Source: Escherichia coli (GTDB lineage Bacteria > Pseudomonadota > Gammaproteobacteria > Enterobacterales > Enterobacteriaceae). Taken from it: 64,000 nucleotides of DNA. Of this stretch, positions 38,561-54,032 are shown piece after piece. The notes under the pieces were generated by a model. The model ran no database searches and was not told the DNA's origin. It saw nothing but the letters and a program-made list of their open reading frames with translations. Position 1 is the first letter of the stretch; every line of letters begins with the position of its first letter. The position numbers and the translations under genes were made by a program. The DNA is taken from assembly GCF_036507355.1 (NCBI RefSeq), contig NZ_AP027877.1; one strand, 5' to 3'.

Positions 38561-39040
38561 TCATTGTGATATTTCCATCTCTGTGATTAATACCGGATAA
38601 GCATTTAATTGCAGAGTTTGCACGAAATTATCGCAGATAACTGGCAATAACAATAACCCATCAGCCCGCTGCTGTAATACCTCCATTCGTTCTACTGATT
38701 CAACATTAACAACCAAACCAAGGGCATTTAGCGATTTAAGGATCTCCAGATGTTCACTCATCCAGCGCAGAGAAAAAGGATCATCACCAATTATAAAAAC
38801 AGGCCCCCAGCCGGTTAATAACTGGCGTTTCATTACGGAGCCAGGATGAAGTCGAGTACATATTACAGGAAATACCCCCTGTTGCGATGGTTCCGATGAT
38901 GTGGATAATTCAGAAATATTTTGCATTGTTAGTGAAGAATTAACATCCATTAATAATGGTGAAACAACCTCACTTTCCTTGCTAGTAATGGCTGCACTAA
39001 TCTGAAAGGAAAATAACAATATTATTACGTATAAACTCAT
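38561..39040 (-). CDS. Small secreted or membrane protein of unknown function (159 aa from MSLYVIILLFSFQISAAITS)
   Basis: ORF 38561..39073; N-terminal hydrophobic signal-like segment; possibly the counterpart of K-12 ykfM by position (uncertain). Confidence 0.45.
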   Translation of the reverse strand: MSLYVIILLFSFQISAAITSKESEVVSPLLMDVNSSLTMQNISELSTSSEPSQQGVFPVICTRLHPGSVMKRQLLTGWGPVFIIGDDPFSLRWMSEHLEILKSLNALGLVVNVESVERMEVLQQRADGLLLLPVICDNFVQTLQLNAYPVLITEMEISQ

Positions 39041-39139
39041 TTTTAACATAACACATTCAATCCGTTTATTCATGTTATAGAATAATGATGCTATAAATCA
39101 TCATTAATGTTCAATTATTTAATCACACAATTTAAAAAA

Positions 39140-39571
39140 TCATTGACCAATGTGAATTGGCAATGTACCACTCAAGTTAAAATCACTGAATATTTTATCA
39201 ATTTCTCTTGCAGTTTCTATATATTTAACCTCTTTCGTACTTGCATTATAAATAGCCCAAGCCTCGGAATGGGATGTTTCACCAAACCTTACAAAAAAAC
39301 TTGATTTCATATTATTATATAAATTAACATCAGGAAAAGGATCTTCTCCAAAATTAGTAGTATTGAATAATGAAAGTTCGTATCGCTTAGAAAATTCTAT
39401 TGGTAGGATAGCTTCACTGCCATCAATAGCATTCATCCAGAGTTTGTTACCATTATATTCCAACAATAATCTCTGTTTTGCATGTGTCTTATCTCGTTCT
39501 TTAACGACAGCGAATACCTTTTTAACAACTTGCTGTGCGGATGGTCCTATTGTATTACCAAAAGCTGGCAA
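39140..39571 (-). CDS. Hypothetical protein, start uncertain (TTG start in track; out-of-frame ATG with strong SD just upstream)
   Basis: ORF 39140..39571; AT-rich; lies between two H-rpt fragments. Confidence 0.35.
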   Translation of the reverse strand: MPAFGNTIGPSAQQVVKKVFAVVKERDKTHAKQRLLLEYNGNKLWMNAIDGSEAILPIEFSKRYELSLFNTTNFGEDPFPDVNLYNNMKSSFFVRFGETSHSEAWAIYNASTKEVKYIETAREIDKIFSDFNLSGTLPIHIGQ

Positions 39572-39799
39572 CCCGATTTTGCCATAAACACTCTCCTAAA
39601 TGAAATAAATATCCGTTTTATCGGCCTCGACAATATCTACCATTTATCCCTCCAAACAAGACCTGACTCCAGGACAAGAGCATAGTGTGTAGTAAACACT
39701 TCATGCTCTTGCCCTGACCATTGAAATAACAACTTTCGTTTGTTTACTGTACGCTGTCTAAATAGCTGCGTGGAATAAAGTTGCACTTTTTATCATCCC

Positions 39800-40640
39800 T
39801 TGCAGAGCAAGATTACGAAAGCCCGCCCCCGCAAGGACTGACGCGAGGTAGTCTCTGTCCGCAGCTGCTTTTCACATCTTACATCTTGCCCCTGCCATGA
39901 GTATCTTATCTTTCGTTAAAATATTAATAGCGATCTTCCGTATCCCTGAAAATAATTCTGCTGCATTTCCTCTTCTTATTTTGAAGTCATCTTTATTCAT
40001 TACCACGTCCAGATGCCAGTGCAATTTATTCTCCACTTGCCAGTGATTTCGGTTCGCTGTGGCGAACTTCTCTGCGGTTAAATCAGCAGAAATGCTATAA
40101 TATCTGACCGTCATTTCGGGATTTTTCTTTTGTTCTGCTATTATTGAGCGAAATGAGACTGCCATGCATAATTTCTTCAGCCCTTTCCATTCAAACGTAA
40201 AATCAATAAATTCATCAGAGACATGCAAACAATATGAAGACGGATTTTAATGACATAAATTGCTCCCTTGTGACGACTCTTGTCATAAGAGTGCCGGAGC
40301 GTTTTTCCATCAATTGCGATGATGTCTTTATCATCTGAAGAATGACAGTCACGCATCCAGTTAATAAAGCACTCGTAAAATTTTGCAGGACTGATACAGG
40401 ATACAACTCTGGCAATGATATCGTGAACAGGAATACCATTTTCAAAATCACCATATCACTTCAAAAAATCGAGATGTGTTTCCCCAAATCCTCTATATCT
40501 TCCCAGCCTTATGCACCAGAAATAACGGCGCAAATAGTTAACAGATAGAATATCTGGCAATTTATGTTCCACTTTCCAGGCTTGCCTGTAATCGGGGATA
40601 ATAGAAATATGTTCCATCAATTTTTTAAGTTCCATTTTAC
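39800..40640 (-). pseudogene. H-repeat (ISAs1-family) transposase, disrupted by internal deletion and frameshifts
   Basis: N-terminus [26 protein letters not shown].. near 40640, mid part ..[11 protein letters not shown].., C-terminal part 39872..40228 (..[45 protein letters not shown]..). Confidence 0.7.
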
Positions 40641-40892
40641 CCCCCTTAATTATGCAATGAGTATTTGATCATGTATAAGCAATGAAAAACAGCTTTAGGT
40701 AATAAGGAACACCTCAATTATTGAACATAAAATGCGAATTATTTAGTACAAAAAAAGCAGTATTACGTGATTTTTCCCTGGGAGTACAGTGTGAAGTTTC
40801 CGGCATGGCGGGATGCGGATGGGTTTGAACTGGGGTGATTAGGCACTACATGTCTACATTTTCCCGGTCACCACCCCCTCAATCTTATGAAC

Positions 40893-42953
40893 TTAACCTC
40901 GGCTCACCGTTTTCGATTCCATCCAATAAATGACCCGGTTGGATGTGGGCTGATCGCCAACAACTTTGCCATCTGCAGAGATTAGCTTCAGCTCTTTATT
41001 AGCCTCATCACCGAAGTAAATCATACGGTAGCGAAAATAACCGCCCCAGGGTTCACGTCCACCCAGCGGACTTTGCATAAACCAGGCGCGGGAGTCGTGA
41101 ACCTGGTCATCATAGAGGGCCAGTAATTCAGCGCATGGCTGAGTACGCGTTCCCGTTCCCAGTGAATCAATAAAAAATTGTGGATAGAGTCCGTCTCCCA
41201 TAGCCTTAATTTGCTGATATTCTTTTGCTTCATCATCGCCATTAATCAGATACACCGGATATTTAGGAATGACATCCACAAGAATCTGAATGGCTTTCTC
41301 CATGACGCTGCCGTTAATATCGCGCGTCCATCCTTTATAATCGCTCTGAAATTCTCGGGCTGCCTCTCGCAACTGATACTGAGCATTGGTTGGGTCAAGG
41401 ATAGGAATGCCCTGATTACTTTCATCAAGTGTGCCATTCCCTTTCTGCTTGTTCGCCCGCTCTTTTTCAATATTTTCCATTTGTTCTTTACGCGCTTTAG
41501 CCTCTTTATCAAGTCCATCTTTATCCAGCTGTGGCGCCTTAATATAAAAAGGTTGCACAAGAAGGCTGTTATTCGCATAGCGACCGATACGCCAGGCGGT
41601 GATCCAGCCGATCTGATCGCTAATTGCGCTTTCAAGAACCTGGGCAAGTTGATAGGAGTGATAACCTTCCCTCGTATCAATCATTTCTTCTGTACCCTGC
41701 AAGGTGGTGTTCAGCAGCGTTTGTCGCCAGATGTTGAAGCGTTTTGTTAATGAATTAGCAATCGTAAATTCCTTTACACTAGAAGGACTCATAATTCGCA
41801 GAGGCGACACACCTTTTATTAATGGAGTAACAAATTTAGAATAAACAGCAAGTGGTGCTCCTGAATCAAATGCAGCAAGATACATATCATGCAGTGCTAT
41901 CTGAGAAAGAATTTCGCCTGAGTCACCACAGGACTTCCCCTGATCGCGAACGGGATAGCCACCACCGACATCAGAGTGCATCCCCGGATAGATAATTTCC
42001 TCTGCATTTAAAGGATAATTTCCGTCTGGACGACGGATTGAATCCAGCGGAAAGCACAGCCGCTGCTCATGCGCGGCAACGAAGTGGCGGCAGCATTTAA
42101 TCAGGCCGGGAAACTGCCTCTCATCAGGGAGTTGCTGAGTACTATCGGCCCATCCCATATGACCGGCAGCGCCCGGTAAAACATGCGCCGCCCCCACAGA
42201 AGCTACGGTATCCAGCAGCCCCAAAAACTCAATACTGACAGCTAACCCGGCCAGCATCACCTGTTGCTCCTGCGGGCAAGCTAACTGAGTCAACCAGTTA
42301 ACAAAAGTTCGTGCTTCCGCTGCGCCACGGGAAAATCCGTAGATAAACAGCTTTACGTTTAGCAGGCGCGGACTGGCTTGCTCTAACAGTCCCTGTAATT
42401 TTTCCAGGTAGGGGTTAATCACATTGCGACGATTCACTTCACCAGTCATAGGCCAGGGAGCGCGCATAAGAGGAATGTGCTCTTTTGCCACATTATCATC
42501 CAGTCGCTTATGGGAAGGGTCAATGGAATAGCTCAGGGCATCCACGAGGCGTAATAATGCCCAATTAATTCGATCTTCACCACCAGTAGCGAACTCCAGC
42601 CCGCTGTTGCTGTAATCCATTTCACCTATCTTGGGAAATGGTGTGCCTACACCCGGTATATAGTAGTTAAAATATCCCTGTTCTTCTGCGTTCTGATAGG
42701 TCGTATGAAACAGTTTGGCAATATTGGTTGGGTGTCCAGGAGTGTCATTATATTCATTATTATTTGTACCATCAAAAAACAGACTAATATGCAGACTTTG
42801 ATTACACGTAAAGCCAATTCTAAATCCAGCCTGTTTACTACAGTTGGTTTTGTGCTCTTCTGTTTTATTGATTTGTTTTAGGTAGTTCGCGTTTACCTGC
42901 GCTTCAGATAATATTAATCGCCCATCTTCAGGGAACACCGGGGGGCATAACAC
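40893..42953 (-). CDS. Tle1-family phospholipase effector, DUF2235 alpha/beta hydrolase (686 aa)
   Basis: DUF2235 hallmarks: N-terminal ..HISLFFDGTNNN.. and GxSxG nucleophile elbow IYGFSRGAAEARTF; sits downstream of a vgrG stub and a DUF4123-like gene. Confidence 0.75.
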   Translation of the reverse strand: MLCPPVFPEDGRLILSEAQVNANYLKQINKTEEHKTNCSKQAGFRIGFTCNQSLHISLFFDGTNNNEYNDTPGHPTNIAKLFHTTYQNAEEQGYFNYYIPGVGTPFPKIGEMDYSNSGLEFATGGEDRINWALLRLVDALSYSIDPSHKRLDDNVAKEHIPLMRAPWPMTGEVNRRNVINPYLEKLQGLLEQASPRLLNVKLFIYGFSRGAAEARTFVNWLTQLACPQEQQVMLAGLAVSIEFLGLLDTVASVGAAHVLPGAAGHMGWADSTQQLPDERQFPGLIKCCRHFVAAHEQRLCFPLDSIRRPDGNYPLNAEEIIYPGMHSDVGGGYPVRDQGKSCGDSGEILSQIALHDMYLAAFDSGAPLAVYSKFVTPLIKGVSPLRIMSPSSVKEFTIANSLTKRFNIWRQTLLNTTLQGTEEMIDTREGYHSYQLAQVLESAISDQIGWITAWRIGRYANNSLLVQPFYIKAPQLDKDGLDKEAKARKEQMENIEKERANKQKGNGTLDESNQGIPILDPTNAQYQLREAAREFQSDYKGWTRDINGSVMEKAIQILVDVIPKYPVYLINGDDEAKEYQQIKAMGDGLYPQFFIDSLGTGTRTQPCAELLALYDDQVHDSRAWFMQSPLGGREPWGGYFRYRMIYFGDEANKELKLISADGKVVGDQPTSNRVIYWMESKTVSRG

Positions 42954-43298
42954 GGAAAAGCCAGACCACTTATTTTGCTGGACATGTTGCTGGTTCTTTT
43001 ACTTTGAGAGATTTTAATTGATGGGTATTGTTTCTACGACAATAAAGTTTTGACAAAGAAGCAAATAAAATGCATATCTTTCGATTGTCACACATTGGAA
43101 TATCGACAGAGCATTGATGATATTACGCAAAATATATTGCAGCCAAGTGAACTGACATTACGATCGAACACAAATGCAACATGATGGATACTACCATTAC
43201 ATGTCGAGCTTGATTTTCCGTTTATTTCACGATTATCTCTTGATATTAACAGCTACGGACTTTTAAACAGATAAATCTCCCCGTACATCACCACAATA

Positions 43299-44069
43299 TT
43301 ATCCTTCGAAGTCCCGCAAAGCTCCGAAATATTTCGCGTCATTGGCTCTGAAAGCAATATCAAGACAGTGGGCAAAATAGCTTTCCTGACTGAGTTCACT
43401 GACTGCTTTCTCCTTCATCAGGACTTCAGCGTCGCAGATACAGCCCATCAATCCCACCTGTACATCATCCACCCGATTCATCTCCGGGTTGTCAGTAAGC
43501 CTGCGTTCTGGTGAAAAACTTCCTGATTTCCAGTTAATCTCACCATCACGGTCTAACCAGCTCCAGAACAACGCAATATCAGTAAATGTCGCCTGCTGCT
43601 CGTTAGTCAAAACATGTGTGAACAGTAAAGGGAACACCCGATTATCATAGTAACGCAGCAATCCGGTCTGTTCTTCCCACTGAACCTGTGACAATACCTG
43701 AAGATGCCGCCCCAGCAGGTCGAATGTAAGAGGGGATATCAACAAAGTAAGACGCGGCGTATCAGCAAATGACGCCATCAGTTGTGCCAGAAATTTGCGA
43801 TGGCTACTGAGCGCAAAGTACAGGCGTAACACTACAGGGGAATACTCCATCGTCTCAGCTTCAGGCGTTCCTTCAAACAGGGCATACCAGTGAATGGCTG
43901 GCGACAGATGAAGCATATCATTTTGCAAAGGTTGGTCGGTTCCAGCCTGGTCAACAAGCACATCTATGTAATCCAAACCAGCGGCAGAACAGAATGATTC
44001 AGCTTGCTTCAGCCAGATAATATATTTGTCTTGATCGGTAGCGTGTGGCGATACTGTTATCATTGTCAT
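43299..44069 (-). CDS. DUF4123-like T6SS effector adaptor/chaperone (256 aa)
   Basis: Size and position (between vgrG 3' end and effector) typical of DUF4123 adaptors; assignment from context and general sequence character. Confidence 0.5.
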   Translation of the reverse strand: MTMITVSPHATDQDKYIIWLKQAESFCSAAGLDYIDVLVDQAGTDQPLQNDMLHLSPAIHWYALFEGTPEAETMEYSPVVLRLYFALSSHRKFLAQLMASFADTPRLTLLISPLTFDLLGRHLQVLSQVQWEEQTGLLRYYDNRVFPLLFTHVLTNEQQATFTDIALFWSWLDRDGEINWKSGSFSPERRLTDNPEMNRVDDVQVGLMGCICDAEVLMKEKAVSELSQESYFAHCLDIAFRANDAKYFGALRDFEG

Positions 44070-44075
44070 TCTCCC

Positions 44076-44447
44076 TTATCCACGAGGCGCAAAAACGGCG
44101 GCGGCTTCTTGCGCCCTTTTCAGGCACTCCTTACACACCGATTTTTCTGGCGCTTCCTCACCCTCATCGTTGTTATCATTCTGATCGGACGATGCATTAC
44201 TATCATTTTGCTCAGCCGCTAAACTTTTATCATCTGCCAGCGCTTTCAGAACCGCCGGTTGCAGCGTCGGCACCGGCGTTCCCGGACTACCGCCGCTATT
44301 GAGATTGATTTTCGGCCCGACGATGTCCACGCTCCCTGAATGGATGACCACAAACGAGCCGCCCACCTTCAGGCTTATCCGGCTGCTGCTCTCCAGCACC
44401 ACATCGCCCTCCACCTTTAACCACGCCACCGCAGTCAATGGCATCAC
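44076..44447 (-). pseudogene. vgrG: vgrG 3'-terminal stub (123 aa)
   Basis: ..KVEGDVVLESSSRISLKVGGSFVVIHSGSVDIVGPKINLNSGGSPGTPVPTLQPAVL.. aligns to the C-terminus of the vgrG at 47531..49237; shared DNA segment 44366..44402 = 47916..47952. Confidence 0.75.
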
Positions 44448-44652
44448 CGGTTCTGGCGGTAGGTTTATCGTCGATAAAGGCGAAAGAGGTGTTTCCGGCT
44501 CTTAAGAAATATTTACGCACATGCACCAGCATTACAGAAAATAAAACCTGCGATACATTTTAATCAATAAGGTTGCTTTACCAAGCTTCCATCGATATTG
44601 ATGGAAAATTCATTAGACCTAATATGAACAGAATGTTGCTCATCATCTTTAT

Positions 44653-45339
44653 CTAATATTTGATTAACAAAAAAAACGTATTTTTATCAAATTCATAATT
44701 ATCACATCCCTCTCCACTAAATGATATAGCTCTAAAATCATATTCATTACATGAGTATCTTTTCATCAAAATAGAGAGGAATGTTTCATTAATTGATTTT
44801 AATACAAACCATTTTCTCCTAACAAGTTTGTAGTTTAATGTTTTTATATGATAATTATTTAAACTGGGGAGAAATGAATGCATATCATTCAATTTTACAT
44901 CAAAATATATTTTTTTACCTGCCGTAATTTCCACCCATCGGCTCAAATTCAAATCAAGCTCAAAGGGACAAAAGCCTCCTAGATAGTCTAAGCTAATATT
45001 TCCTGATGTAATCAAGAATTCGTCATCACACAAAGCATCAAATACATCTCCATTTCCTTTTTGGAAGTTCTTTGGATAATATATTCTGGGGAGAAAATAC
45101 GATTTAGTACTACTGTTATAAAAAGTTATAGTGGCTAAAATATTTTCAGCATGTGGCTTAACCACCAATTTAACAACAACATCATTTGTTAATTCATTAC
45201 TTATATTTTCCTCTGGCGCTAAATTATGGCTAAGATAAATAATTGGTTTCCCATTGTCACTTCTTCGTTCAAAACCGAATCTGTATTTTTTTACAAAAAG
45301 ATTCTCATTATCTATTGCAATTGCAATAGATAATGGCAA
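44653..45339 (-). CDS. AT-rich hypothetical protein, candidate immunity partner of the upstream HExxH protein; start uncertain
   Basis: ORF 44653..45339 begins at TTG; an ATG with signal-like peptide MKRLAFYNLNYVVLMVFFFVFC lies upstream in another frame across T-homopolymer runs. Confidence 0.35.
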   Translation of the reverse strand: MPLSIAIAIDNENLFVKKYRFGFERRSDNGKPIIYLSHNLAPEENISNELTNDVVVKLVVKPHAENILATITFYNSSTKSYFLPRIYYPKNFQKGNGDVFDALCDDEFLITSGNISLDYLGGFCPFELDLNLSRWVEITAGKKIYFDVKLNDMHSFLPSLNNYHIKTLNYKLVRRKWFVLKSINETFLSILMKRYSCNEYDFRAISFSGEGCDNYEFDKNTFFLLIKY

Positions 45340-45512
45340 AAAACAAAGAAAAAAACCATCAGTACAACATAATTTAGATTATAGAAAGCCAACCTCTTCA
45401 TCTTATTTCCCCGTCAACTCATCAAAACATTTTTCTATCTCTTTTATTTTATCCTCTACTTTTTTTGCTAACATATTCTCATCTTGAGCTTCAATATCTT
45501 CATTATTTAATT

Positions 45513-46205
45513 TTATATAAAATATCTTTCAACATTATATGCATTCTCAAATAACTGATCTTTACGCAATGTAACCAGATCATTAGCCACTGAAACATGT
45601 TTCTCATAGCTAACTTCATCCTTATTACTTGTTGCGAACTTATTAATACCCGTATAATCCTGAGTCCACATACCACCTTTTTGATTGTCACCCCAATACC
45701 AAAATATATGGGACATTTCATGGCAAAGTGTACTTACATGAGAGTCTCTACCTGTAACCGACTGTTTTATACCATGTCTGTATTCAAAATGCGCTCCGAT
45801 ATTTACAATGTAAGGAGGATCAAGATGTGGACTAATAAAAGCAGCAAATTCATTGCAGTTCGTATAATCTTTATAGCTTTCGATCGTCAAACCATTTGCA
45901 ATCGTCATTATTCGTCTGATGCCATCCATTATGAATAGTCTCGCTTGCATTCGTTTCCCAGTATCTTCCCCAACCTTTCTGATTTTTATAATGTCCTCGC
46001 CTTTAAGGCCAAAAACTTTAATAAAATCTCGTTGTTGCTCCCCCTCCCATGACATAATATCATCTGCTCTTTTCAATAAAACCATTTTCTGTGCTTTACA
46101 AGCCTTACTCATCATTATTTTAAATTTATTTGTAATTTTTTGCGGTACTACACATACTTGCGACTCGGGTTGTGAAGTCCCACTAGTATTATTATTCCCT
46201 GCCAT
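45513..46205 (-). CDS. HExxH zinc-metallopeptidase-like protein, candidate T6SS effector (230 aa)
   Basis: ATG at 46205 preceded by GGAGGGG; motif HEMSH followed by ..WTQDYTG.. (aspzincin-like spacing); N-terminal 16 codons of track ORF 45513..46334 come from the IS600-like terminus. Confidence 0.5.
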   Translation of the reverse strand: MAGNNNTSGTSQPESQVCVVPQKITNKFKIMMSKACKAQKMVLLKRADDIMSWEGEQQRDFIKVFGLKGEDIIKIRKVGEDTGKRMQARLFIMDGIRRIMTIANGLTIESYKDYTNCNEFAAFISPHLDPPYIVNIGAHFEYRHGIKQSVTGRDSHVSTLCHEMSHIFWYWGDNQKGGMWTQDYTGINKFATSNKDEVSYEKHVSVANDLVTLRKDQLFENAYNVERYFI

Positions 46206-46349
46206 AATGCCCCTCCGGCTCAATATAAAAAGCATCCGAAAATAACAATTGGACTTTAATTTCCTGTGCTGTATCTGTATAAAAGTGAGGTAGCCTGAGT
46301 TTAACGGACACTCCTTCCTGAAATAGAATGGCATCAGAAGGAGCTAATA

Positions 46350-46652
46350 ATGAGCAGAAAAACCCAACGTTACTCTAAAGAGTTCAAAGCCGAAGCTGTC
46401 AGAACGGTTCTTGAAAATCAACTTTCGATCAGTGAAGGCGCTTCCCGATTATCTCTTCCTGAAGGCACTTTAGGACAATGGGTTACCGCCGCCAGAAAAG
46501 GGCTCGGTACTCCTGGTTCCCGCACGGTGGCTGAACTGGAATCTGAAATTCTGCAACTGCGTAAGGCGTTAAATGAAGCTCGCCTTGAGCGAGATATATT
46601 AAAAAAAGCAACAGCGTATTTTGCACAGGAGTCGCTGAAAAATACGCGTTAA
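46350..46652 (+). CDS. IS3-family transposase OrfA (IS600-like)
   Basis: MSRKTQRYSKEFKAEAVRTVLENQLSISEGASRLSLPEGTLGQWV..; HTH plus leucine zipper. Confidence 0.85.
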   Translation: MSRKTQRYSKEFKAEAVRTVLENQLSISEGASRLSLPEGTLGQWVTAARKGLGTPGSRTVAELESEILQLRKALNEARLERDILKKATAYFAQESLKNTR

Positions 46653-46687
46653 TCGAACAATGGCGACAACAATTTCCCATTGAAGCG

Positions 46688-47506
46688 ATGTGTCAGGTAT
46701 TTGGTGTATCCAGGAGCGGTTATTACAACTGGGTACAGCATGAACCCTCAGACAGAAAACAAAGTGATGAGCGGCTAAAACTGGAGATTAAGGTGGCACA
46801 TATCCGCACTCGCGAAACATATGGAACCCGGCGGCTCCAGACGGAGCTGGCAGAGAATGGCATCATCGTTGGTCGTGACCGACTGGCACGTCTTCGTAAG
46901 GAGCTAAGGCTACGCTGTAAGCAGAAACGCAAGTTCAGAGCGACTACGAACTCGAACCACAATCTGCCAGTTGCGCCAAATCTGCTGAACCAGACGTTCG
47001 CTCCTACAGCACCAAATCAGGTCTGGGTGGCGGACCTGACGTATGTTGCCACACAGGAGGGATGGTTGTACCTCGCTGGCATCAAAGATGTTTATACGTG
47101 CGAAATTGTCGGCTACGCCATGGGAGAGCGCATGACAAAAGAGCTGACAGGTAAAGCCCTGTTTATGGCGCTCAGGAGCCAGCGCCCACCTGCCGGGCTA
47201 ATCCACCACTCTGATCGAGGTTCACAGTACTGCGCATACGATTACCGGGTCATACAGGAGCAGTTTGGTCTGAAAACATCAATGTCGCGTAAAGGTAACT
47301 GTTACGACAACGCTCCGATGGAAAGCTTCTGGGGAACGCTGAAAAATGAGAGCCTGAGCCACTATCGTTTTAATAACCGGGATGAAGCCATCTCAGTAAT
47401 ACGGGAATACATTGAGATTTTCTACAATCGTCAGCGTCGTCACTCTCGTCTGGGGAATATCTCCCCGGCAGCCTTCAGGGAAAAATATCATCAGATGGCT
47501 GCTTAA
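46688..47506 (+). CDS. IS3-family transposase OrfB, DDE integrase domain (IS600-like)
   Basis: ..WVADLTYVATQEGWLYLAGIKDVYTCEIVGYAM..HHSDRGSQYCAYDY.. Confidence 0.85.
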   Translation: MCQVFGVSRSGYYNWVQHEPSDRKQSDERLKLEIKVAHIRTRETYGTRRLQTELAENGIIVGRDRLARLRKELRLRCKQKRKFRATTNSNHNLPVAPNLLNQTFAPTAPNQVWVADLTYVATQEGWLYLAGIKDVYTCEIVGYAMGERMTKELTGKALFMALRSQRPPAGLIHHSDRGSQYCAYDYRVIQEQFGLKTSMSRKGNCYDNAPMESFWGTLKNESLSHYRFNNRDEAISVIREYIEIFYNRQRRHSRLGNISPAAFREKYHQMAA

Positions 47507-47530
47507 AAAAAGAATAAATGGTAGTGTCCG

Positions 47531-49237
47531 CTATTGCCAGTACACCTCAAATATTTCTGTATATCCCTCTCTGTCTGTTTCACCACGCGTCTGTGTGCCA
47601 TCCTCAAAAAAGGCAATATACTGCGTCTCTGAATACGGTATCCCGTCATCGTCCGTAAAATGGAACTGGAGGGTATATTTTTCAGGATCATCTTCATCGT
47701 CACCGCCATCACCTCCTCCGTCACTCCCTGCGGGATTGCCACTATCCTCTCCGGAGTCATCACTGCCATCATCACTGCTCTCATCCTCCGGAGCCTCCAG
47801 CACCGCCGGCTGCATCGTCCCCACCGGTGTCCCCGCACTGCCCCCACCGTTCAGGTTTATCTTCGGCCCGGCAATATCCACTCCGCCCGGCTGAATGACG
47901 ATAAACGAGCCACCCACCTTCAGGCTTATCCGGCTGCTGCTCTCCAGCACGATATCCCCGTCCACTTTTATCCCCAGCGCGCCACTCACCTTCTCCGCCA
48001 GGTCCCCCTTCACCACCAGGCTGTGTTTCCCCTCCACCAGACTGATATGGTTCCCCGTCGTCTTATGCTCCTGCTTCCCTTCCACCGTCACTTTACGGTC
48101 GTTTCTGACGTACAGACCGTCATCGTGACTCACGCTCACCGTCCGGTCATTCGTCACCTTCAGAGTCTGGTCATTACGTACCGTGATACGCCGGTCGTTC
48201 GCCACCGTGATACTCTGGTCGTGGCCCCCCTCTTTTTTTGTACCGACCTGAACCGTCTGACCCTTCACCACCGTTATCTTCTGGTCGTTACCGATGGTTT
48301 CCGTATGGTCATGTTTTACATCCGTTGTCCGGTCGTTGAGCACCTCCGTATCCATGTTCTTCTGCGCATGGATATACACCTGCTCATTACTGGTGGCGTC
48401 TTCAAACCGCAGCTCGTTAAATCCGCTTCCTTTATAGGTTTTTGACCGTATCGTCATCTGCGTCTTCGTTCCCGGCAGGTCGCCCGGGGAGCGGTTGTCC
48501 TCATGGTACGTCCGCCCCATGATTATCGGCTGGTCCGGGTCTCCGTTCAGAAAATCAACAATCACCTCCTGGCCCACCCGCGGTATCGCCAGATTACCGA
48601 ACCCCGGCCCCGCCCACGCCTGCGATACCCGCACCCAGCATGAACTCGCCTCCGTCATCCCGTGATAACGGTCCCAGTGGAACTTCACCCGTACCCGGCC
48701 ATGTTCATCGCAGAAGATTTCCTCTCCCGCAGGCCCGGTGACAATGGCACTCTGCGGCCCGTCCACCTTCGGTTTGCTTTGCAGCCGTGGACGCCACGTC
48801 CGGTCCGCCGGTATCACCTCTAACTGATTTCCCAGCGTGGTTCCTCTCCCTTGGCTGCCGTGCAGCGCCTGCGGCTGGCTTCCTGACAGTATGCTCTGTA
48901 CCACCTGCCATTCACGGTTCAGCATCTTCTGCGGATGCCCCGTCAGCGTAAACCGCGTTCCCGGCCACAGCCTCGGCGAATTACTCTGCCCTGTGGCCTT
49001 TTCCGCATCACTGCGCAGGCTCTCCATCTGGTACAGCGTGAAATCCTTGCCGTGCTGCTCATCCTTGAACCTTCCCGGATAATCAAATATTTCATACTGC
49101 GCCAGCTGTCCGTTCAGGTTCTCACCCTGCTGCTCATACATCCCCGGCCAGTCCGGCACCTTAAACGTGTAATCCTGGCTCTGCACCGACGACGGGCGGA
49201 CATGCGCCTCATACGCTACCGCCCGGGTTTCCGGCAT
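47531..49237 (-). pseudogene. vgrG: vgrG lacking ~270 N-terminal residues; 3' end runs into the IS600-like element
   Basis: Starts within the gp27-like region (..VRPSSVQSQDYTFKVPDWPG..), contains gp5 OB-fold segment (..VDGPQSAIVTGPAGEEIFCDEHGRVRVKFHWDR..) and Asp/Glu/Gly-rich C-terminal extension; last 6 codons are IS sequence. Confidence 0.8.
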
Positions 49238-49290
49238 CCGCCATCTCCCTCATGAAAGCGTAACTCCTTACTGACACTCATTTTTTACAC

Positions 49291-49330
49291 GTACAAAAAC
49301 AACATCCTGCACGAAGGCAGGATGTTGTTG
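49291..49330 (-). terminator. Intrinsic terminator downstream of hcp
   Basis: Minus-strand caacatcctgc-cttcgtg-caggatgttg followed by TTTTTGT. Confidence 0.6.
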
Positions 49331-49338
49331 ACTCAGAT

Positions 49339-49857
49339 TTATGCTTCCAGCGGTGCACGCCAGTCATCGGCACCAGAAGTACCGGATTTGATGTGCTCCC
49401 ACTCAACCTTACGGTATGCCAGTGATACTGCGAGCAATTGCGTAAACTCACGCTGTGCAGGGTCCTGGCAGTGCGGCATGTGCAGGTTCATGTCCACAAT
49501 CGTCGCGTCAGTAAGACGTGTGGTGAAGTAGTGCTCCTGCTTGCCTTCAACTGAAGTACGCCACCAGTGCAGCTCCACTTTCGGCAGCATTTCACCGGAG
49601 GCCAGCGCGTTGTACAGCAGCGGAACGGCTTTGTTCAGCGCCACGGTGAAAATGAACGGTTTGTGCGCGCGCTGCCCGGAAGGTTGACCAGACTGTGGAT
49701 CGGTTGGAACAGTAACGTTATGCAGAAACTCCTGCACCAGCATTTCATCTTCGTGTCCCTGCACGTAGATATTGCCGACAGAATCTGCGGTGAAAGCACC
49801 GGCAGTGATGTTCCCCTGGGTCTGACCTGTAATTGAAATGTAACATGGGGTTGGCAT
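49339..49857 (-). CDS. hcp: T6SS tube protein Hcp (172 aa)
   Basis: MPTPCYISITGQTQGNITAGAFTADSVGNIYVQGHEDEMLV..HKPFIFTVALNKAVPLLYNAL.. Confidence 0.9.
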   Translation of the reverse strand: MPTPCYISITGQTQGNITAGAFTADSVGNIYVQGHEDEMLVQEFLHNVTVPTDPQSGQPSGQRAHKPFIFTVALNKAVPLLYNALASGEMLPKVELHWWRTSVEGKQEHYFTTRLTDATIVDMNLHMPHCQDPAQREFTQLLAVSLAYRKVEWEHIKSGTSGADDWRAPLEA

Positions 49858-50559
49858 TTATGAACTCCTTGTGAAATTATCAACTGCTGTTTTACGAACA
49901 ACCCGTCGTTAATCCCCGACGGGTTAGAGTGTGATGCGGCTCACATCAGGAACCACACCCTTTTCTTTATTCGAGTTACAGGCACACGTAATTAGCACCT
50001 ACTGAAAAACTCTTTTATGGTGTTTAAATATATTTTTAGTCAATTTCAGAACACGGTCACATAAGCTAAAAATATATCAACTTCAACAGCAGAATTATCC
50101 ATAACGTATCTTCCCCCCCATAAAAATCCACAGCCGCGTCAAAAACAAATTATTACGACACTTACTCCGCCATCGTTCCAGCACGCAATTAAGATATTCC
50201 TTAAAGGAATTCCTTATGATGTATTGCCAGCAATTAATTAATTGATAAAACCATACATAAAACTTATTAATCAATTTAATAAATGCATATAAATCAATAT
50301 ATTATTGTATTTGATTGACCGTAAAATCATATTCATCAAGTCTATAAATACCAAAATCTATTTCACTATAATATATTAGCAAGGAAGAATGCATCTCTTT
50401 CTAAAATATAAATAGTTCTTTTAATATTTTATTTCATGAGTAGAATACTGATCACAACAGAAGGAAGGTTACATTATCTAACTGCCACTGAAACGGTATC
50501 TTCGGTATTTTTATGCAGTACGAAAATGCTGTGCTCATGGTCTGAACGGGAACATTTTT

Positions 50560-50715
50560 ATGAGCAAAATGAACAACAATGGCGGCAGTGTCGCGCCGAA
50601 AGAAAGAATCAGCGTTCGGTATACACCAAAAGTTGATGGGGTGGCTGCTGATATCGAATTGCCGCTGAATTTATTGATCACCGGCAATCTGAAAGGGAAA
50701 CCAGATAACACGCCG
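50560..50715 (+). pseudogene. tssB: tssB (sheath small subunit) 5' stub, ~52 codons, cut by IS3-family element
   Basis: MSKMNNNGGSVAPKERISVRYTPKVDGVAADIELPLNLLITGNLKGKPDNTP then IS terminus; TssB N-terminal pattern; too short for the ORF track. Confidence 0.55.
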
Positions 50716-50772
50716 TGAATCGCCACGGGTTTAACAGACACCTCAGAGTCATTTAAGATGGCTTAAAGAGAG

Positions 50773-51057
50773 GTGCCCATGAGCGGTAAGCGTTATCCCG
50801 AAGAGTTTAAAATTGAAGCAGTCAAACAGGTTGTTGATCGCGGTTATTCTGTTGCCAGCGTTGCAACACGTCTCGATATCACCACCCACAGCCTTTACGC
50901 CTGGATAAAGAAGTACGGTCCGGATTCTTCCGCTAATAAAGAACAGTCAGATGCTCAGGCCGAGATCCGCCGTCTCCAGAAAGAGCTGAAGCGGGTTACC
51001 GACGAACGGGACATATTAAAAAAAGCCGCGGCGTACTTCGCAAAGCTGTCCGACTGA
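50773..51057 (+). CDS. IS3-family transposase OrfA
   Basis: MPMSGKRYPEEFKIEAVKQVVDRGYSVASVATRLDITTHSLYAWIKKY.. Confidence 0.85.
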   Translation: MPMSGKRYPEEFKIEAVKQVVDRGYSVASVATRLDITTHSLYAWIKKYGPDSSANKEQSDAQAEIRRLQKELKRVTDERDILKKAAAYFAKLSD

Positions 51058-51113
51058 GGTACGCCTTTATCCGTGACAACACCTGTTGCTGGCCTGTTCG
51101 CCTGCTCTGTCGG

Positions 51114-51926
51114 GTGCTGGATGTTCATCCCAGTGGTTTTTACGCCTGGCTTCAGCAGCCGCATTCACAACGCCATCAGGCAGACCTGAGGCTGACAGGG
51201 CAGATTAAACAGTTCTGGCTGGAATCGGGATGCGTCTATGGTTATCGCAAAATCCATCTGGATCTGCGGGACAGCGGGCAACAGTGCGGAGTGAACAGAG
51301 TCTGGCGACTGATGAAACGTGTCGGGATAAAGGCTCAGGTCGGATACCGGAGCCCGCGGGCACGTAAAGGCGAGGCCAGTATCGTGTCGCCCAACAGGCT
51401 CCAGCGACAGTTCAATCCGGATGCTCCGGATAAGCGTTGGGTAACGGACATAACCTACATCAGGACCCACGAAGGCTGGCTGTATCTTGCCGTGGTTGTT
51501 GATCTGTTCTCACGCAAAATTATCGGCTGGTCCATGCAATCCCGGATGACAAAGGACATTGTCCTGAACGCACTGCTGATGGCTGTATGGCGCCGTAATC
51601 CCCAAAAACAGGTGCTGGTTCATTCGGATCAGGGCAGTCAGTACACAAGCCATGAGTGGCAGTCGTTCCTGAAATCACACGGCCTGGATGGCAGCATGAG
51701 CCGTCGCGGTAACTGCCATGATAATGCGGTTGCAGAAAGCTTTTTCCAGTTGTTGAAACGCGAACGGATAAAGAAAAAGATCTACGGAACGCGGGAAGAA
51801 GCCCGCAGCGATATTTTTGATTACATCGAAATGTTTTATAACAGTAAGCGTCGGCATGGTTCCAGCGATCAGATGTCACCGACAGAATATGAAAACCAGT
51901 ATTATCAACGGCTCGGAAGTGTCTAG
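51114..51926 (+). CDS. IS3-family transposase OrfB (DDE integrase domain)
   Basis: ..WVTDITYIRTHEGWLYLAVVVDLFSRKIIGWSM..VHSDQGSQYTSHEW.. Confidence 0.85.
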   Translation: MLDVHPSGFYAWLQQPHSQRHQADLRLTGQIKQFWLESGCVYGYRKIHLDLRDSGQQCGVNRVWRLMKRVGIKAQVGYRSPRARKGEASIVSPNRLQRQFNPDAPDKRWVTDITYIRTHEGWLYLAVVVDLFSRKIIGWSMQSRMTKDIVLNALLMAVWRRNPQKQVLVHSDQGSQYTSHEWQSFLKSHGLDGSMSRRGNCHDNAVAESFFQLLKRERIKKKIYGTREEARSDIFDYIEMFYNSKRRHGSSDQMSPTEYENQYYQRLGSV

Positions 51927-52198
51927 ATTATCCGTGGCGATTCAGTTGTCAAGCAGATAGAAGCCATCTAGGTCAGGGGGAATGACTAGGAATTACTCCC
52001 CAAGGGTAGCGTACGTCTACACACATCAAATTACCTCCCGGACAGGGACATAGTAGAAATATTGTGTATTGCAATTATGGATACTGTCATCGTCTAGGTA
52101 GTTCGCCAGCTTTATAGTGTTTTACTGAATTTGGCCACCTGAGCAGAGGTGATATGGGAGAGTGATTTTCATACGCTCTCGTATGGTTTCCGGCCTGA

Positions 52199-52426
52199 AT
52201 GCAGTGTTCATCACGCGATCCGCACGGTGAAATTACAGCTCACAGACTGTGGGGAAACCCGGGGCGCTGGGTGATTGAAGACGACCTGTCCAGTTACTTC
52301 GACACCGTACACCATCGACTGCTGATGAAAGCCGTACGCCGCAGGATCAGTGACGCACGTTTTATGGCCCTCCTGTGGAAAACCATCAAGGCGGGCACAT
52401 CGAGGTCGGTCTCTTTCGGGCGGTAA
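52199..52426 (+). pseudogene. Reverse transcriptase fragment (ykfC-like)
   Basis: ..VIEDDLSSYFDTVHHRLLMKAVRRRISDARFMALLWKTIKAG.. resembles RT finger/palm motifs; no continuation. Confidence 0.45.
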
Positions 52427-52429
52427 GTG

Positions 52430-52684
52430 ACGCCGCGCCAGCTGACGTTGCCACGAATATTCGCCAATACGCTGCCAGACTTCGGTATGAAAGCGCAGAA
52501 TCAATGACCGGTAATCGGCCATGCTTTCGCGGTACGGCAGCGTCAACGTAAAGCAGAACACCACGAGTCGTGGGTAATGGTCAACGGCCTGTTGCAGAAA
52601 GGCTCGTGTATTTGTCGTGTCAGTCGAATTGCCGGAGACGATGGAGGGAGAATAAGGATTCATAACGGCGCTCTCAATGAACAC
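52430..52684 (-). pseudogene. Inovirus Gp2-family protein, N-terminal fragment
   Basis: ..AFLQQAVDHYPRLVVFCFTLTLPYRE.. resembles the N-terminus of Gp2-family proteins of CP4-type islands; remainder of the track ORF is antisense to the RT fragment. Confidence 0.4.
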
Positions 52685-52888
52685 TGGTGTGATGGACAGG
52701 AGTGTGATGTTGCAGGTGTGCTGCTCATCATCGATCCCATATCATTACGTTCGCTCACTAAGACGGAGTGCCTTTCGTCATTTAACCTGTCACAATCCAA
52801 ATAATTTCAGACAGATATTATCTCCGTGAATCCCCCGCCTCCTTAACCGGAGCGCGGGGATTTTTCTTTTTCACGTTGAGAACTCTGT

Positions 52889-53771
52889 ATGACTAAACCT
52901 CACGGCCTTCAGGCCCTTGAACAACCGCTGGCGTCGCTTCCCGATGCGCTTCGCCAGCTTATTCTTGAACGTATTCAGAATCTCACCCACTATGAGCCGG
53001 TGATTGGTATCATGGGCAAAAGCGGTGCCGGTAAGTCTTCGCTCTGTAACGAACTCTTCCGGGGTGAGGTCTCCCCCGTCAGTGATGTGAACGCCTGTAC
53101 CCGTGAAGTGCTGCGCTTCCGGCTGCGCAGCGGGCGTCACAGTCTGGTGATTGTTGATTTACCGGGTGTGGGAGAAAACGGGCAACGGGACCATGAATAC
53201 CGTGCCCTGTACCGGCGTATGCTGCCGGAACTGGACCTGGTTCTGTGGGTCATTAAGTCCGATGACCGGGCGCTGTCGGTGGACGAGCAGTTCTGGCGCG
53301 GTGTGATGCAGCCTTACCAGCAGCAGGTGGTGTTCGTGATTAACCAGGCCGACAAAATAGAACCCAGCCATGAATGGGATACCCGTTCTGGTACTCCCTC
53401 AGCACAGCAACAGAAAAATCTTCAGGAAAAGCAGGTTGCCATTACCACGATGTTTAAGCCACATCACCCGGTCTGCGTGGTATCCGCATGTACCGGATGG
53501 GGCGTGGAGGATATGGTAGCAACCATGATGCGCTGTCTGCCGGACCGCGCCACCAGCCCAGTAGCGACACAGTTGCACGGGAGGCTCTGCACGGAGCCGG
53601 TAAAGTCGCAGGCCCGTGACGGCTTCGGTGAGGCGGTGGGGCGGTGGGGCGGGTGTTCGATACGGCAGAATCATCGTTATTCCTGCCTGCGCCGCTGAAG
53701 ACGGTGATACGTACCGTGCGTGATGCTGTGGTGTCTGTAGCCCGCGCGGTCTGGGACTGGATCTTCTTCTG
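52889..53771 (+). pseudogene. YeeP/YfjP-family GTPase with 3' frameshift from an 8-bp tandem duplication
   Basis: P-loop GKSGAGKSSLCN; cggtgggg repeated in tandem at 53634..53649; removing one copy restores ..GEAVGRVFDTAESSLFLPAPLKTVIRTVRDAVVSVARAVWDWIFF. Confidence 0.65.
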
Positions 53772-54032
53772 AATGAGTAAAAGGTCATCAGGACTGTAGT
53801 GAATGACTCTGTTTATTCACCGCCTGGTAGATGATTATTTCCAGGCAGACATAACCTGTCCTGACCAGCAAAAGATACCACCAGTCATAAGCGCGTCACC
53901 ACTGCCGACGTTGCATCCACACAGTCTTCTTGCACCAGGCGTTTCGCTACGTATGACGGACACAACCTGTCAGTCCCATCCTTTACAGTAATACCTTCTT
54001 TATTAATCAATTACCCAACACGGAGATAATAC

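Follow-up and report, generated by a model that had tools for sequence, protein, structure and literature searches.

A truncated vgrG at the head of a Tla1-Tle1 module in Escherichia coli, and its conserved 3' segment as a possible recombination substrate

In a 64,000-nucleotide stretch of an Escherichia coli genome (RefSeq assembly GCF_036507355.1, contig NZ_AP027877.1; hereafter the window) the 3' part of a vgrG gene occurs twice, once in a large vgrG and once in a short downstream stub. The original prediction took this shared segment to be a crossover point for the swapping of effector modules, and proposed as checks a pairwise nucleotide alignment of the two regions and a survey of related genomes for other cassettes at the same breakpoint. 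The question is whether such a crossover made the stub, and whether the two copies act, or acted, as partners in recombination. The account which we favor, with a probability of about 0.6 for the whole, is that the stub is the remnant of a B-type vgrG from a multi-cassette array, that it arose by an illegitimate join, and that the resulting pair has some potential for recombination.

The repeated segment and its two cargo modules

A repeat search of the window recovers a 215-nt direct repeat (44223-44437 / 47774-47988; 76% identity) with a spacing of 3551 nt, within which the vgrG-derived segments, both on the minus strand, can be aligned gap-free and in register with 151/193 identical nucleotides (78%):

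44230..44422, minus strand: conserved segment, copy 1 (stub), the last beta-helix rungs and spike tip; homology to the vgrG of comparison locus L002 stops at 44422
47781..47973, minus strand: conserved segment, copy 2 (large vgrG), from the repeat search and alignment
44362..44399: 38-nt exact repeat, copy 1
47913..47950: 38-nt exact repeat, copy 2, from the in-register alignment

The similarity is well above chance and, rather than being confined to a few dozen base pairs, reaches the protein level: in BLASTP the 123-aa stub ORF shares 47/60 residues with the large vgrG ORF (E = 1e-28), the match including ..VLESSSRISLKVGGSF..GPKINLN.GGS.GTPV... The predicted description of the stretch as near-identical holds for the 38-nt core, the sole exact in-register run of at least 10 nt, but not for the distal 105 nt of the segment, which are ~72-75% identical; the exact repeat itself had been placed one base out of register (44366-44402 = 47916-47952). 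The segment aligns with the C-terminal end of solved gp5 spike chains and thus encodes the final rungs and tip of the spike beta-helix, by virtue of which its conservation can be explained without a role in recombination.

As predicted, what follows the two copies differs. The large copy, of the A type, ends in a TTR-like tail and lies upstream of an M35 peptidase gene and a putative immunity gene (comparisons are with locus L001):

49339..49857, minus strand: hcp (Pfam T6SS_HCP, E=1.5e-32)
47974..49213, minus strand: body of the large A-type vgrG, its first ~215 codons lost to a 738-bp deletion at 49212/49213
47549..47780, minus strand: A-type linker and proximal TTR-like tail, from the vgrG tail alignment
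46285..47548, plus strand: IS600 (IS3 family), 1264 bp, with a 3-bp AAA target duplication; delimited by its junctions against the uninterrupted L001 and by orfA/orfB Pfam matches
46192..46284, minus strand: final 31 codons of the large vgrG, where its TTR-like tail ends; severed by IS600, from a splice test against L001
45513..46205, minus strand: M35-like metallopeptidase effector (HEMSH motif), 3' end frameshifted, 230 aa versus 267 aa; Pfam Aspzincin_M35 E=1e-3, under the cut-off
44653..45402, minus strand: imm35, putative immunity gene of the M35 effector, 5' end frameshifted relative to the 249-aa L001 orthologue

The stub is followed by an adaptor gene and a phospholipase gene:

44076..44229, minus strand: B-type-specific stub tail (acidic linker and 22-aa ..PEKSVCKECLKRAQEAAAVFAPRG tail), with 97% identity to the 3' terminus of the complete L002 vgrG
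43299..44069, minus strand: tla1, DUF4123 adaptor/chaperone for Tle1 (NCBIfam Tla1 equivalog at 221.5 bits, cut-off 200; Pfam DUF4123 E=2e-15)
42969..42999: 31-bp repeat at the site of the tli1a (DUF3304) immunity gene(s) missing relative to relatives, from the L001 comparison
40893..42953, minus strand: tle1, Tle1-family phospholipase effector, an intact 686-aa ORF (Pfam T6SS_Tle1-like_C E=5e-58, T6SS_Tle1-like_cat E=1e-25), with 99% nucleotide identity to L001

The locus is decayed in the window. Comparison with L001 maps the 738-bp 5' deletion, and Phage_GPD (Pfam) and TIGR03361 match the large vgrG only from profile positions 188 and 206, respectively. Joining 47549.. to ..46281 across the insertion, an element whose family PGAP names IS600 in L005, recovers the L001 C-terminus ..EGYTEIFYTDTAQEIKVQLLFSDAFYIEPEGHYGRE*. 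The M35 gene, termed 'M35 family metalloendopeptidase' by PGAP in L001, and imm35 both bear frameshifts; the latter has no family match in Pfam and NCBIfam profile searches, and its L001 orthologue shows a hydrophobic, signal-peptide-like N-terminus. Window positions 39001-42999 match L001 4202-8200 and positions 42969-46284 match L001 8709-12026, with the tli1a of L001 (8171-8695) absent in between; the 31-mer at this site recurs between tandem tli1a copies of L002. As tssB is also cut by an IS in this genome, disruption extends to spike gene, cargo genes and T6SS core alike: here the locus is a fossil, and therefore shuffling could have no phenotype in this genome.

Derivation of the stub

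Of the stub as originally delimited (44076..44447), the portion 44076-44422 (115 codons) is vgrG-derived, whereas the last 25 nt up to the GTG at 44447 belong to an out-of-frame relic of a PAAR gene. The vgrG portion is a 5'-truncated B-type gene retaining the final beta-helix rungs, the blunt spike tip, the acidic linker and the 22-aa tail. Positions 43279-44422 are 97% identical to L002 10209-11352, a region that takes in tla1 and the terminal 347 nt of a vgrG intact at 743 aa; in other E. coli strains the complete B-type vgrG stands immediately before tla1, tli1a and tle1. PGAP labels the same stub in L001 and L005 'VgrG, incomplete, missing N-terminus'. The 22-aa tail is also found on unrelated VgrG bodies in Enterobacter and Lelliottia, which are only 24% identical and yet end in PKSVCK[DE]CLKKAQEAAAAFA[AP]RG directly before tla1-tli1a-tle1; across genera it accompanies the genes for the Tla1 (DUF4123) adaptor and the Tle1 phospholipase. 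We regard it as very probable that the stub, which sits downstream of the larger vgrG and still at the head of its own toxin module, is the displaced 3' remnant of vgrG_B heading an orphaned Tla1-Tle1 module.

A vgrG leftover of this type is an already known kind of relic. For vgrG islands, De Maayer et al. 2011 (PMC3235180) and reportedly Ma et al. 2018 (cited in PMC10711316) note extra complete and partial vgrG genes in T6SS loci with variable effector regions after vgrG, apparently with no analysis of breakpoints or a shared segment. By analogy with Pseudomonas aeruginosa VgrG4a, whose C-terminal extension binds Tla1 and Tle1 (PMC13133936), the Cys-containing 22-aa tail is predicted to be the docking site for the Tla1 adaptor and the Tle1 phospholipase. 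Each of the two systems has genes for a DUF4123 adaptor (Tla1 equivalog) and a Tle1 phospholipase next to a vgrG with a short C-terminal extension, but the E. coli tail shows no measured sequence relationship to VgrG4a.

The 5' edge of the stub adjoins two further features:

44408..44482, minus strand: PAAR-gene relic of 75 nt (~codons 63-87 of a 94-aa PAAR protein), from blastn, Pfam and alignment
44483..44652: AT-rich spacer (34% GC) that separates the PAAR relic from the putative immunity gene and is restricted to the 12 E. coli genomes with this arrangement

The relic matches annotated E. coli PAAR genes at 79-81% in blastn and the PAAR gene of L013 at 87.5% across 72 nt; its Pfam PAAR_motif hit (E=5e-4) is under the gathering score. 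Relic and stub overlap across 15 nt of imperfect microhomology and are in different reading frames. Since the edge of the stub is this microhomology-bearing junction, we infer that the stub was probably made by an illegitimate joining or deletion within a multi-cassette array and not by a crossover in the shared segment. The stub arrangement of the window occurs in 12/5426 complete E. coli genomes with the same junction in all, and therefore shows no within-lineage variation indicative of turnover. One strain of this arrangement, FDAARGOS_943, has an intact vgrG_A.

The ancestor would have been a tandem array of the form vgrG - cargo - immunity - PAAR - ... - vgrG_B - tla1 - tli1a - tle1. A single illegitimate event could have fused the 3' portion of the PAAR gene with internal vgrG_B sequence at the 15-nt microhomology, removing the first ~630 codons of vgrG_B and leaving the Tla1-Tle1 module without its cognate spike. 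A tandem array containing the M35 cassette itself was not found, and at the same chromosomal site E. coli MFDS1022581 has the order vgrG - Tae4 - imm - PAAR - M23 - imm - vgrG_B - tla1 - tli1a x3 - tle1. Stubs of comparable architecture evidently recur in Salmonella (PAAR relic, 158-codon stub, tla1, tli1a) and in C. freundii (vgrG - LysM effector - imm - 330-codon stub - DUF4123 - DUF3304 - Tle1-like).

These relatives also bear on a possible but rather doubtful alternative, in which a cassette comprising a vgrG 3' part, M35, immunity gene, spacer and PAAR piece entered a resident hcp - vgrG_B - tla1 locus. This would be a sequential displacement through homology-facilitated illegitimate recombination, one crossover being homologous (in hcp or the vgrG body) and the other illegitimate, inside vgrG_B, with the old 3' end and its cargo pushed downstream. 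Such displacement of T6SS effector-immunity modules has been proposed for Vibrio cholerae, where homologous recombination and an illegitimate join are invoked and partial vgrG-3 remnants form part of the model (Kirchberger et al. 2017, PMC5361080). The common E. coli state is indeed hcp - vgrG_B - tla1 ..., with flanks 96-98% identical; the M35 and immunity genes have 29-36% GC versus 58-62% for vgrG; and the C. freundii stub lacks a PAAR relic and directly adjoins its AT-rich upstream cassette. In Salmonella, however, the stub-tla1 module carries the PAAR relic behind other upstream genes and without M35/imm35, and the relic therefore seems to be part of the Tle1 module rather than of an incoming M35 cassette; the MFDS1022581 array, with its intact PAAR gene between cassettes, likewise speaks against insertion. 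In V. cholerae as here the new module lies directly after the delivery gene and the old one downstream, but there it is mostly orphan immunity genes that are retained, whereas here adaptor and toxin remain, the immunity gene is lost in the window, and the junction also bears the PAAR-gene relic.

Recombination within the conserved segment

Among E. coli vgrGs, a 67-nt block (P) and a 105-nt block (D) flank a 21-nt near-invariant core inside the 38-mer, and all four combinations of P and D haplotypes are present. The gene vB carries the Tla1/Tle1 tail; vC, at another place in the chromosome, has a TTR' tail and M35' cargo. Over the ~400 nt that lead to the end of the segment the two share 99-100% identity, and past it they are unrelated. 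The survey of related genomes further revealed four cargo modules attached at this boundary in E. coli. By these sequence comparisons, which establish the anatomy and junctions of the locus as well as population-level recombination in the segment, the segment marks a boundary of recombination mosaics among the vgrG paralogues of E. coli. The predicted role as a crossover point is hence borne out for the vgrG family, but not for the origin of the stub in the window.

For the window's own pair the chances that the shared segment acts, or acted, as a recombination substrate are about even. With 78% identity and a single 38-nt exact block it is a weak substrate, as mismatch repair would strongly depress recombination between such copies. 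The copies share orientation and codon register at a spacing of 3551 nt, and RecA-type recombination between them, most plausibly seeded by the 38-nt core, could excise the A-type tail together with M35 and the immunity gene and leave an in-frame vgrG hybrid bearing the Tla1-docking tail. Just as well, incoming B-type DNA could use the stub as a homology arm. The order of events by which the stub arose, like recombination of this particular pair, is what we infer. No recombinant product of the stub and the large vgrG was identified; the vA body is so similar to that of vB (92-95%, mosaic) that an A/B hybrid would be unrecognisable in genome data.

It is possible but rather doubtful that the stub is simply a decaying pseudogene fragment with no role past or present, its similarity to the large copy reflecting spike-tip constraint from when both genes were complete. 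PGAP does label it a pseudogene, Pfam detects no family in it, the segment encodes the beta-helix end, the entire locus is degenerate in the window, and promoter-like sites near the stub are no commoner than in shuffled sequence. Against this, the four-gamete pattern and the abrupt transitions from 100% identity to unrelated sequence show exchange in or at the segment among E. coli vgrGs. Moreover, the E. coli stub is 97% identical to full-length vB, whereas the Salmonella module with its analogous PAAR-relic head is only ~75% identical, a pattern which fits later homogenisation through the stub. Very improbable is an expressed small protein, started from an ATG in the +1 frame of the PAAR relic and kept open to couple translation into tla1 or to bind Tla1-Tle1: in both E. 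coli and Salmonella vgrG continues in frame from the same ATG (MPLTAV(A/V)WL...), with entry points 57 codons apart, the stub ORF of Salmonella runs uninterrupted for 167 codons even though its amino-acid sequence diverges by ~40% from that of E. coli vgrG, and tla1 starts 7 nt past the stub stop with GGGAG between, but two in-frame fusions have a chance of ~1 in 9, no convincing Shine-Dalgarno precedes the E. coli start, the 12 E. coli copies are ~99% identical and so give no power to detect selection, and a fragment without gp27 and OB-fold domains is unable to enter a spike.

A parallel to the recombination potential of the pair is provided by orphan C-terminal toxin modules of Rhs and CdiA proteins, which are 5'-truncated copies lying downstream in direct orientation with a short homology just upstream of the variable region, through which recombination can swap the toxic end; reactivation of a Salmonella orphan Rhs was reportedly described by Koskiniemi et al. 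in 2014, a study cited in PMC5361080. The stub is likewise 5'-truncated, downstream and in direct orientation with a short homologous stretch. In those systems, however, the variable part is a fused toxin domain marked by a fixed peptide motif, whereas here a separate cargo effector is predicted to dock on a tail that is itself non-toxic, and identity over the homologous stretch reaches only 78%. A VgrG C-terminal extension acting as cargo specifier is also known from the TTR domain of EAEC VgrG1, which serves Tle1; in the window, by contrast, the TTR-like tail accompanies the M35 peptidase and not Tle1.

The duplicated vgrG segment and the locus around it

A repeat search of 40000-54000 reported one long direct repeat, 44223-44437 versus 47774-47988, with 76% identity and a spacing of 3551 nt. 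Within it, 44230-44422 and 47781-47973 align in register and ungapped with 151/193 identical bases, and a 38-nt exact repeat (44362-44399 = 47913-47950) is the sole exact run of at least 10 nt between the copies. The similarity continues in the encoded proteins, with 47/60 identities (E = 1e-28) between the 123-aa ORF of the vgrG stub and the ORF of the large vgrG. The original prediction of a vgrG 3' segment present twice is therefore correct, and the similarity extends over a 193-nt segment rather than a few dozen base pairs; the pair it offered as an exact match (44366-44402 = 47916-47952) is one base out of register and not exact. Every gene of the locus lies on the - strand, and the locus adjoins fadE-ivy-yafV (E. 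coli relatives).

Features of the vgrG locus in the direction of transcription
49857-49339, - strand: hcp
49213-47974, - strand: body of the large, A-type vgrG
47973-47781, - strand: conserved segment of the large vgrG
47780-47549, - strand: acidic linker and TTR-like tail of the large vgrG
46285-47548: IS600, 1264 bp with an AAA target duplication, separating the last 31 codons of the large vgrG
46284-46192, - strand: last 31 codons of the large vgrG
46205-45513, - strand: M35-like metallopeptidase gene
45402-44653, - strand: imm35, putative immunity gene
44652-44483: AT-rich spacer
44482-44408, - strand: PAAR-gene relic, 75 nt
44422-44076, - strand: vgrG stub
44069-43299, - strand: tla1 (DUF4123), above cut-off for the NCBIfam Tla1 equivalog
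42953-40893, - strand: tle1

Downstream of tle1, a degenerate ISAs1-family (H-repeat) transposase remnant occupies 39872-40635. It recurs at the same place in 23CRST031, ECO20, MFDS1022581 and L005, so the variable effector region has a fixed border on its right-hand side. The body of the large vgrG carries 24-nt periodic direct repeats at 48130-48288 (families D2 and D12), corresponding to an 8-residue beta-helix repeat, at which slippage might cause in-frame deletions.

Solved gp5 spike chains match the conserved segment at their C-terminal end, where ..DIKGAKINLN, the chain end of 4jiw_A, corresponds to ..VDIAGPKINLN of the segment. We take 4jiw to be a gp5 beta-helix fragment modified to mimic the VgrG tip and solved with a PAAR protein; if so, the conserved segment is the blunt spike tip on which PAAR sits. 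Its location at the end of the spike beta-helix accounts for its conservation, which makes its use in recombination a by-product. The stretch singled out in the original prediction is the last near-invariant core before module-specific sequence starts.

A mosaic boundary at the end of the spike

We aligned five full vgrG 3' regions and two stubs, those of the window and of a Salmonella enterica contig (L006). The full regions comprise vA (the window and E. coli 23CRST031; TTR-like tail, M35 cargo), vB (E. coli ECO20; Tla1/Tle1 tail), vC (ATCC 11775, where yddH and yncG flank an island of the order PAAR - vgrG - M35' - imm') and the two vgrGs of E. coli MFDS1022581. Although vB and vC come from different loci of different strains, they are 99-100% identical over ~400 nt until the segment ends, then 79% identical, and then unrelated. 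Likewise, vA and vB are 92-95% identical until ..GGCTCGTTT, the end of the 38-mer; identity is ~72-75% in the 105 nt that follow, and further on no relationship remains. The segment resolves into a 67-nt block P and a 105-nt block D, with a 21-nt near-invariant core between them that lies inside the 38-mer.

Forms of the two blocks
Block P, form 1: vA, vB, vC, window stub
Block P, form 2: MFDS1022581 vgrG1 and vgrG2
Block P identity: at least 65/67 within a form (full-length copies) and 42-46/67 between forms; 44-45/50 for the window stub, of which just 50 nt fall within P
Block D, form 1: vA, MFDS1022581 vgrG1
Block D, form 2: vB, vC, MFDS1022581 vgrG2, window stub
Block D identity: 93/105 within form 1, 98-103/105 within form 2 and 75-79/105 between forms

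All four combinations of P and D forms were found, and since each form is a multi-substitution haplotype, exchange between the blocks is implied. The tails after block D are also reshuffled: form 1 of D precedes TTR-like (M35 cargo) or Tae4-associated tails, form 2 precedes Tla1 or TTR' (M35' cargo) tails, and other Enterobacteriaceae show additional tail types after the same ..GTPV.TLQP.VL.AL.D boundary. The general idea of a crossover segment is supported at the level of the family, by the mosaic boundaries and the four-gamete pattern.

For the two copies in the window the same claim fares less well. With 78% identity and a single 38-nt exact block, the pair is a poor substrate. Efficient RecA-dependent exchange in E. 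coli needs a minimum of ~20-30 bp of perfect identity; exchange between the window copies is therefore possible but should be rare, opposed by mismatch repair. No recombinant derived from the pair was found, and the similarity of the vA and vB bodies would hide one. A search of genome data for a recombinant of the stub with the A-type vgrG was dropped, as these bodies are 92-95% identical and themselves mosaic.

The vC island is an orphan in its own right (PAAR - vgrG - M35' - imm' - ISAs1 remnant at L003 5849-10398 in ATCC 11775). It occurs in ~518 complete E. coli genomes, and its M35' is 68% identical to the window M35 at the nucleotide level. In E. coli TUM17543 the island is cut down to PAAR and a 531-aa 3'-truncated vgrG with a 21-nt overlap with the yddH remnant.

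Origin of the stub and of the Tla1-Tle1 module

The interval 43279-44422 is 97% identical to ECO20 contig L002 10209-11352, an interval made up of tla1 and the 3'-terminal 347 nt of a vgrG that is intact there (743 aa) and sits directly between hcp and tla1. As homology to this vgrG ends at 44422, the stub represents the last ~115 codons of a B-type vgrG (residues ~628-743 of 743). The Phage_GPD hub and the Phage_base_V OB-fold of a full VgrG/TssI are absent from it; its 123-aa ORF has no Pfam family, and among NCBIfam models gives a single sub-threshold match of 16 bits. Its match to the large VgrG and its alignment to the 4jiw_A end identify terminal beta-helix rungs and a blunt tip. RefSeq annotation already treats the stub as a pseudogene, and PGAP labels it 'VgrG, incomplete, missing N-terminus' in 23CRST031 and in a further E. 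coli genome (L005).

Besides the conserved segment, the stub keeps an acidic linker and a 22-aa tail, ..PEKSVCKECLKRAQEAAAVFAPRG. In Enterobacter and Lelliottia, VgrGs with a body identity of only 24% terminate in this 22-residue tail immediately ahead of tla1-tli1a-tle1, so the tail belongs to the cargo module. This tail-grafting observation was the sole yield of a Tla1 scan of the genome collection, which returned four loci, none with a stub. In Pseudomonas aeruginosa, Tla1 and Tle1 both bind to the extension at the VgrG4a C-terminus (PMC13133936); by analogy, the 22-aa tail may recruit the Tla1 adaptor and the Tle1 effector.

Both partners are present in the window: Tla1 (DUF4123) scores 221.5 bits against an NCBIfam cut-off of 200, and tle1, a DUF2235-type phospholipase gene, encodes the Pfam Tle1-like catalytic and C-terminal domains. 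The DUF3304 gene tli1a, which accompanies tle1 in relatives in one to four tandem copies and is present in the same arrangement in 23CRST031 and L005, is absent beside tle1 in the window; its site is marked by a 31-bp repeat (42969-42999, within 42954-43298). It was apparently lost through recombination between the 31-bp repeats that separate tandem copies. The 686-aa tle1 ORF itself is intact, without an immunity gene, in a genome with a dismantled T6SS. The locus contains two vgrG copies of like orientation, the longer one first and the 5'-truncated one downstream of it, with the homology situated just upstream of the variable end; the truncated copy is followed by tla1 and tle1 without tli1a. 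Promoter-like sites for this orphan module did not exceed the number expected from shuffling, and a terminator-like site was not detected.

The 25 nt of the stub ORF upstream of 44422 and the next 35 nt are not vgrG. Instead, 44408-44482 matches annotated E. coli PAAR genes at 79-81%, and 72 nt of it align at 87.5% with the PAAR gene of MFDS1022581. Translated in a different frame, it gives ..FIDDKPTARTGDAIDCGGVV, a match to the Pfam PAAR_motif model with E = 5e-4 and 20.7 bits, below the gathering score of 27; it amounts to ~25 codons of nucleotide homology truncated at both ends, not a complete PAAR domain ORF. The PAAR and vgrG homologies share 15 nt, GGTTAAAGGTGGAGG, which are like both parents, and such an overlap is the hallmark of illegitimate joining through microhomology. 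MFDS1022581 carries, at the same chromosomal site, the array vgrG - Tae4 - imm - PAAR - M23 peptidase - imm - vgrG_B - tla1 - tli1a x3 - tle1, its vgrG_B being split by IS21. This array is a plausible parent-type architecture for the stub, in which a deletion running from the PAAR 3' end into vgrG_B would generate the observed junction.

Alternatively, the M35 cassette could have been inserted through one homologous and one illegitimate join, a route that has been proposed for Vibrio cholerae (PMC5361080). The Salmonella contig tells somewhat against this: there a PAAR relic (residues 51-87), with its 3' truncation within a few nucleotides of that of the E. coli relic, runs into a B-tail stub that, at 158 codons, exceeds the E. 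coli one in length, followed by tla1 and two tli1a genes, with neither M35 nor imm35 and with unrelated genes upstream. The PAAR piece therefore appears to belong with the Tle1 module and not with the M35 cassette. A 5' relic junction common to E. coli and Salmonella did not hold up as a result, since the spacer alignment, though colinear, reached a score of 26 where shuffled sequences averaged 17.4 (sd 2.5, max 29), which is not significant; a 5' edge shared between both genera is at most suggestive. A Salmonella-type left flank was not detected in E. coli, where L006 1-2300 as query matched nothing except vgrG and tla1.

The order large vgrG - M35 - imm35 - PAAR relic - stub - tla1 - tle1 is rare, occurring in 12/5426 complete E. 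coli genomes, with an identical junction in all 12. In both genera the stub frame is joined in frame to the same ATG, derived from the PAAR relic. This raises the rather improbable prospect, to which we give roughly one chance in ten, that the PAAR piece and vgrG stub form the conserved working head of a mobile orphan Tla1-Tle1 cassette of E. coli and Salmonella. Were this true, the head would be kept open because it works, either as a homology handle through which a resident vgrG of any kind could capture or re-arm the cassette, or as a leader whose translation is required for tla1/tle1 expression.

Decay of the locus, precedents and look-alikes

Degeneracy of the window copy was judged against 23CRST031, which has the same arrangement. 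The large vgrG is not a complete VgrG/TssI, as hub, OB-fold and beta-helix do not lie within one uninterrupted ORF: the TIGR03361 match is confined to profile positions 206-513, and that to Phage_GPD starts no earlier than position 188. A 738-bp deletion at 49212/49213, with 2-3 nt of microhomology at its junction, reaches from within the hcp-vgrG intergenic region across the vgrG start into the gene, of which ~215 codons at the 5' end are gone. IS600 is inserted in the TTR-like C-terminal domain; this IS3-family element has an orfA/orfB transposase with HTH_Tnp_1 and rve domains besides its 3-bp target duplication, and PGAP names the matching E. coli element family IS600. The ORF as listed consequently ends in IS sequence (..EIFEVYWQ*), and the true C-terminus resumes at 46281-46192. 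M35 is frameshifted at its 3' end (230 aa versus 267 aa in 23CRST031) and imm35 at its 5' end, where the signal-peptide-like N-terminus is destroyed (frameshift region with M35: 45340-45512).

Only the first ~52 codons of tssB are left, cut at 50716 by an IS3-family element (region 50560-51944) whose terminal inverted repeats, 38 nt each, lie at 50716-50753 and 51907-51944. Relatives have the T6SS core genes next; these are therefore missing there, and the sequence that follows includes a 269-aa GTPase-like ORF (52889-53698). With the 5' end of vgrG gone and the tssB side of the T6SS locus severed, any exchange would be phenotypically silent in this strain, and the locus is of little consequence for a genome whose T6SS is already dismantled. 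The exact window configuration was found in no complete E. coli genome of the collection, and no record covered at least 80% of the query.

Orphan, displaced modules are known from Rhs and CdiA loci, and the window architecture is of the same pattern. It also matches that of V. cholerae T6SS clusters (PMC5361080). Partial vgrG genes in T6SS loci have been on record since 2011 (PMC3235180), and M23, DUF4123 and DUF2235 cargo is known from vgrG islands of E. coli (PMC10711316, citing Ma et al. 2018). Three details may be new, namely a PAAR-relic/vgrG junction of a kind that Salmonella also has, the use of the four-gamete pattern to map the boundary to about 20 nt, and the presence of the 22-aa tail as a graft on VgrG bodies that are unrelated. 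Exchanging or stacking T6SS effector cassettes alters both the neighbours that a strain can kill and its own immunities, and this locus offers a compact example from the enterobacteria, with a module boundary that is resolved to ~20 nt and coincides with the end of the spike beta-helix. Together with the putative Tla1-docking tail grafted onto unrelated VgrG bodies, this is of use for sequence-based prediction of effector loading and for the engineering of chimeric spikes.

A third, independent case of such a stub, besides those of E. coli and Salmonella, comes from Citrobacter freundii, with the order vgrG - LysM effector - imm - 330-codon vgrG stub - DUF4123 - DUF3304 - Tle1-like and no PAAR relic; genuine internal stubs were confirmed only in E. 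coli, Salmonella L006 and C. freundii (L015/L016). A set of 83 short 'partial VgrG' proteins was rejected as a census of stubs, P0011, P0023 and P0037 (loci L014-L017) being assembly breaks at contig ends, and was used solely for sampling tail diversity. Many public short 'partial VgrG' or 'Rhs' entries are such contig-end artefacts, as assemblies break inside the multi-copy conserved vgrG body, and should not be tallied as stubs. An apparent stub of Enterobacter hormaechei (P0043) proved to be the product of an inversion splitting vgrG: at L007 7190-9396, residues 1-589 and 608-724 lie on opposite strands, 48 nt apart, and the 3' part, a different kind of stub, heads a DUF3828-containing cassette.
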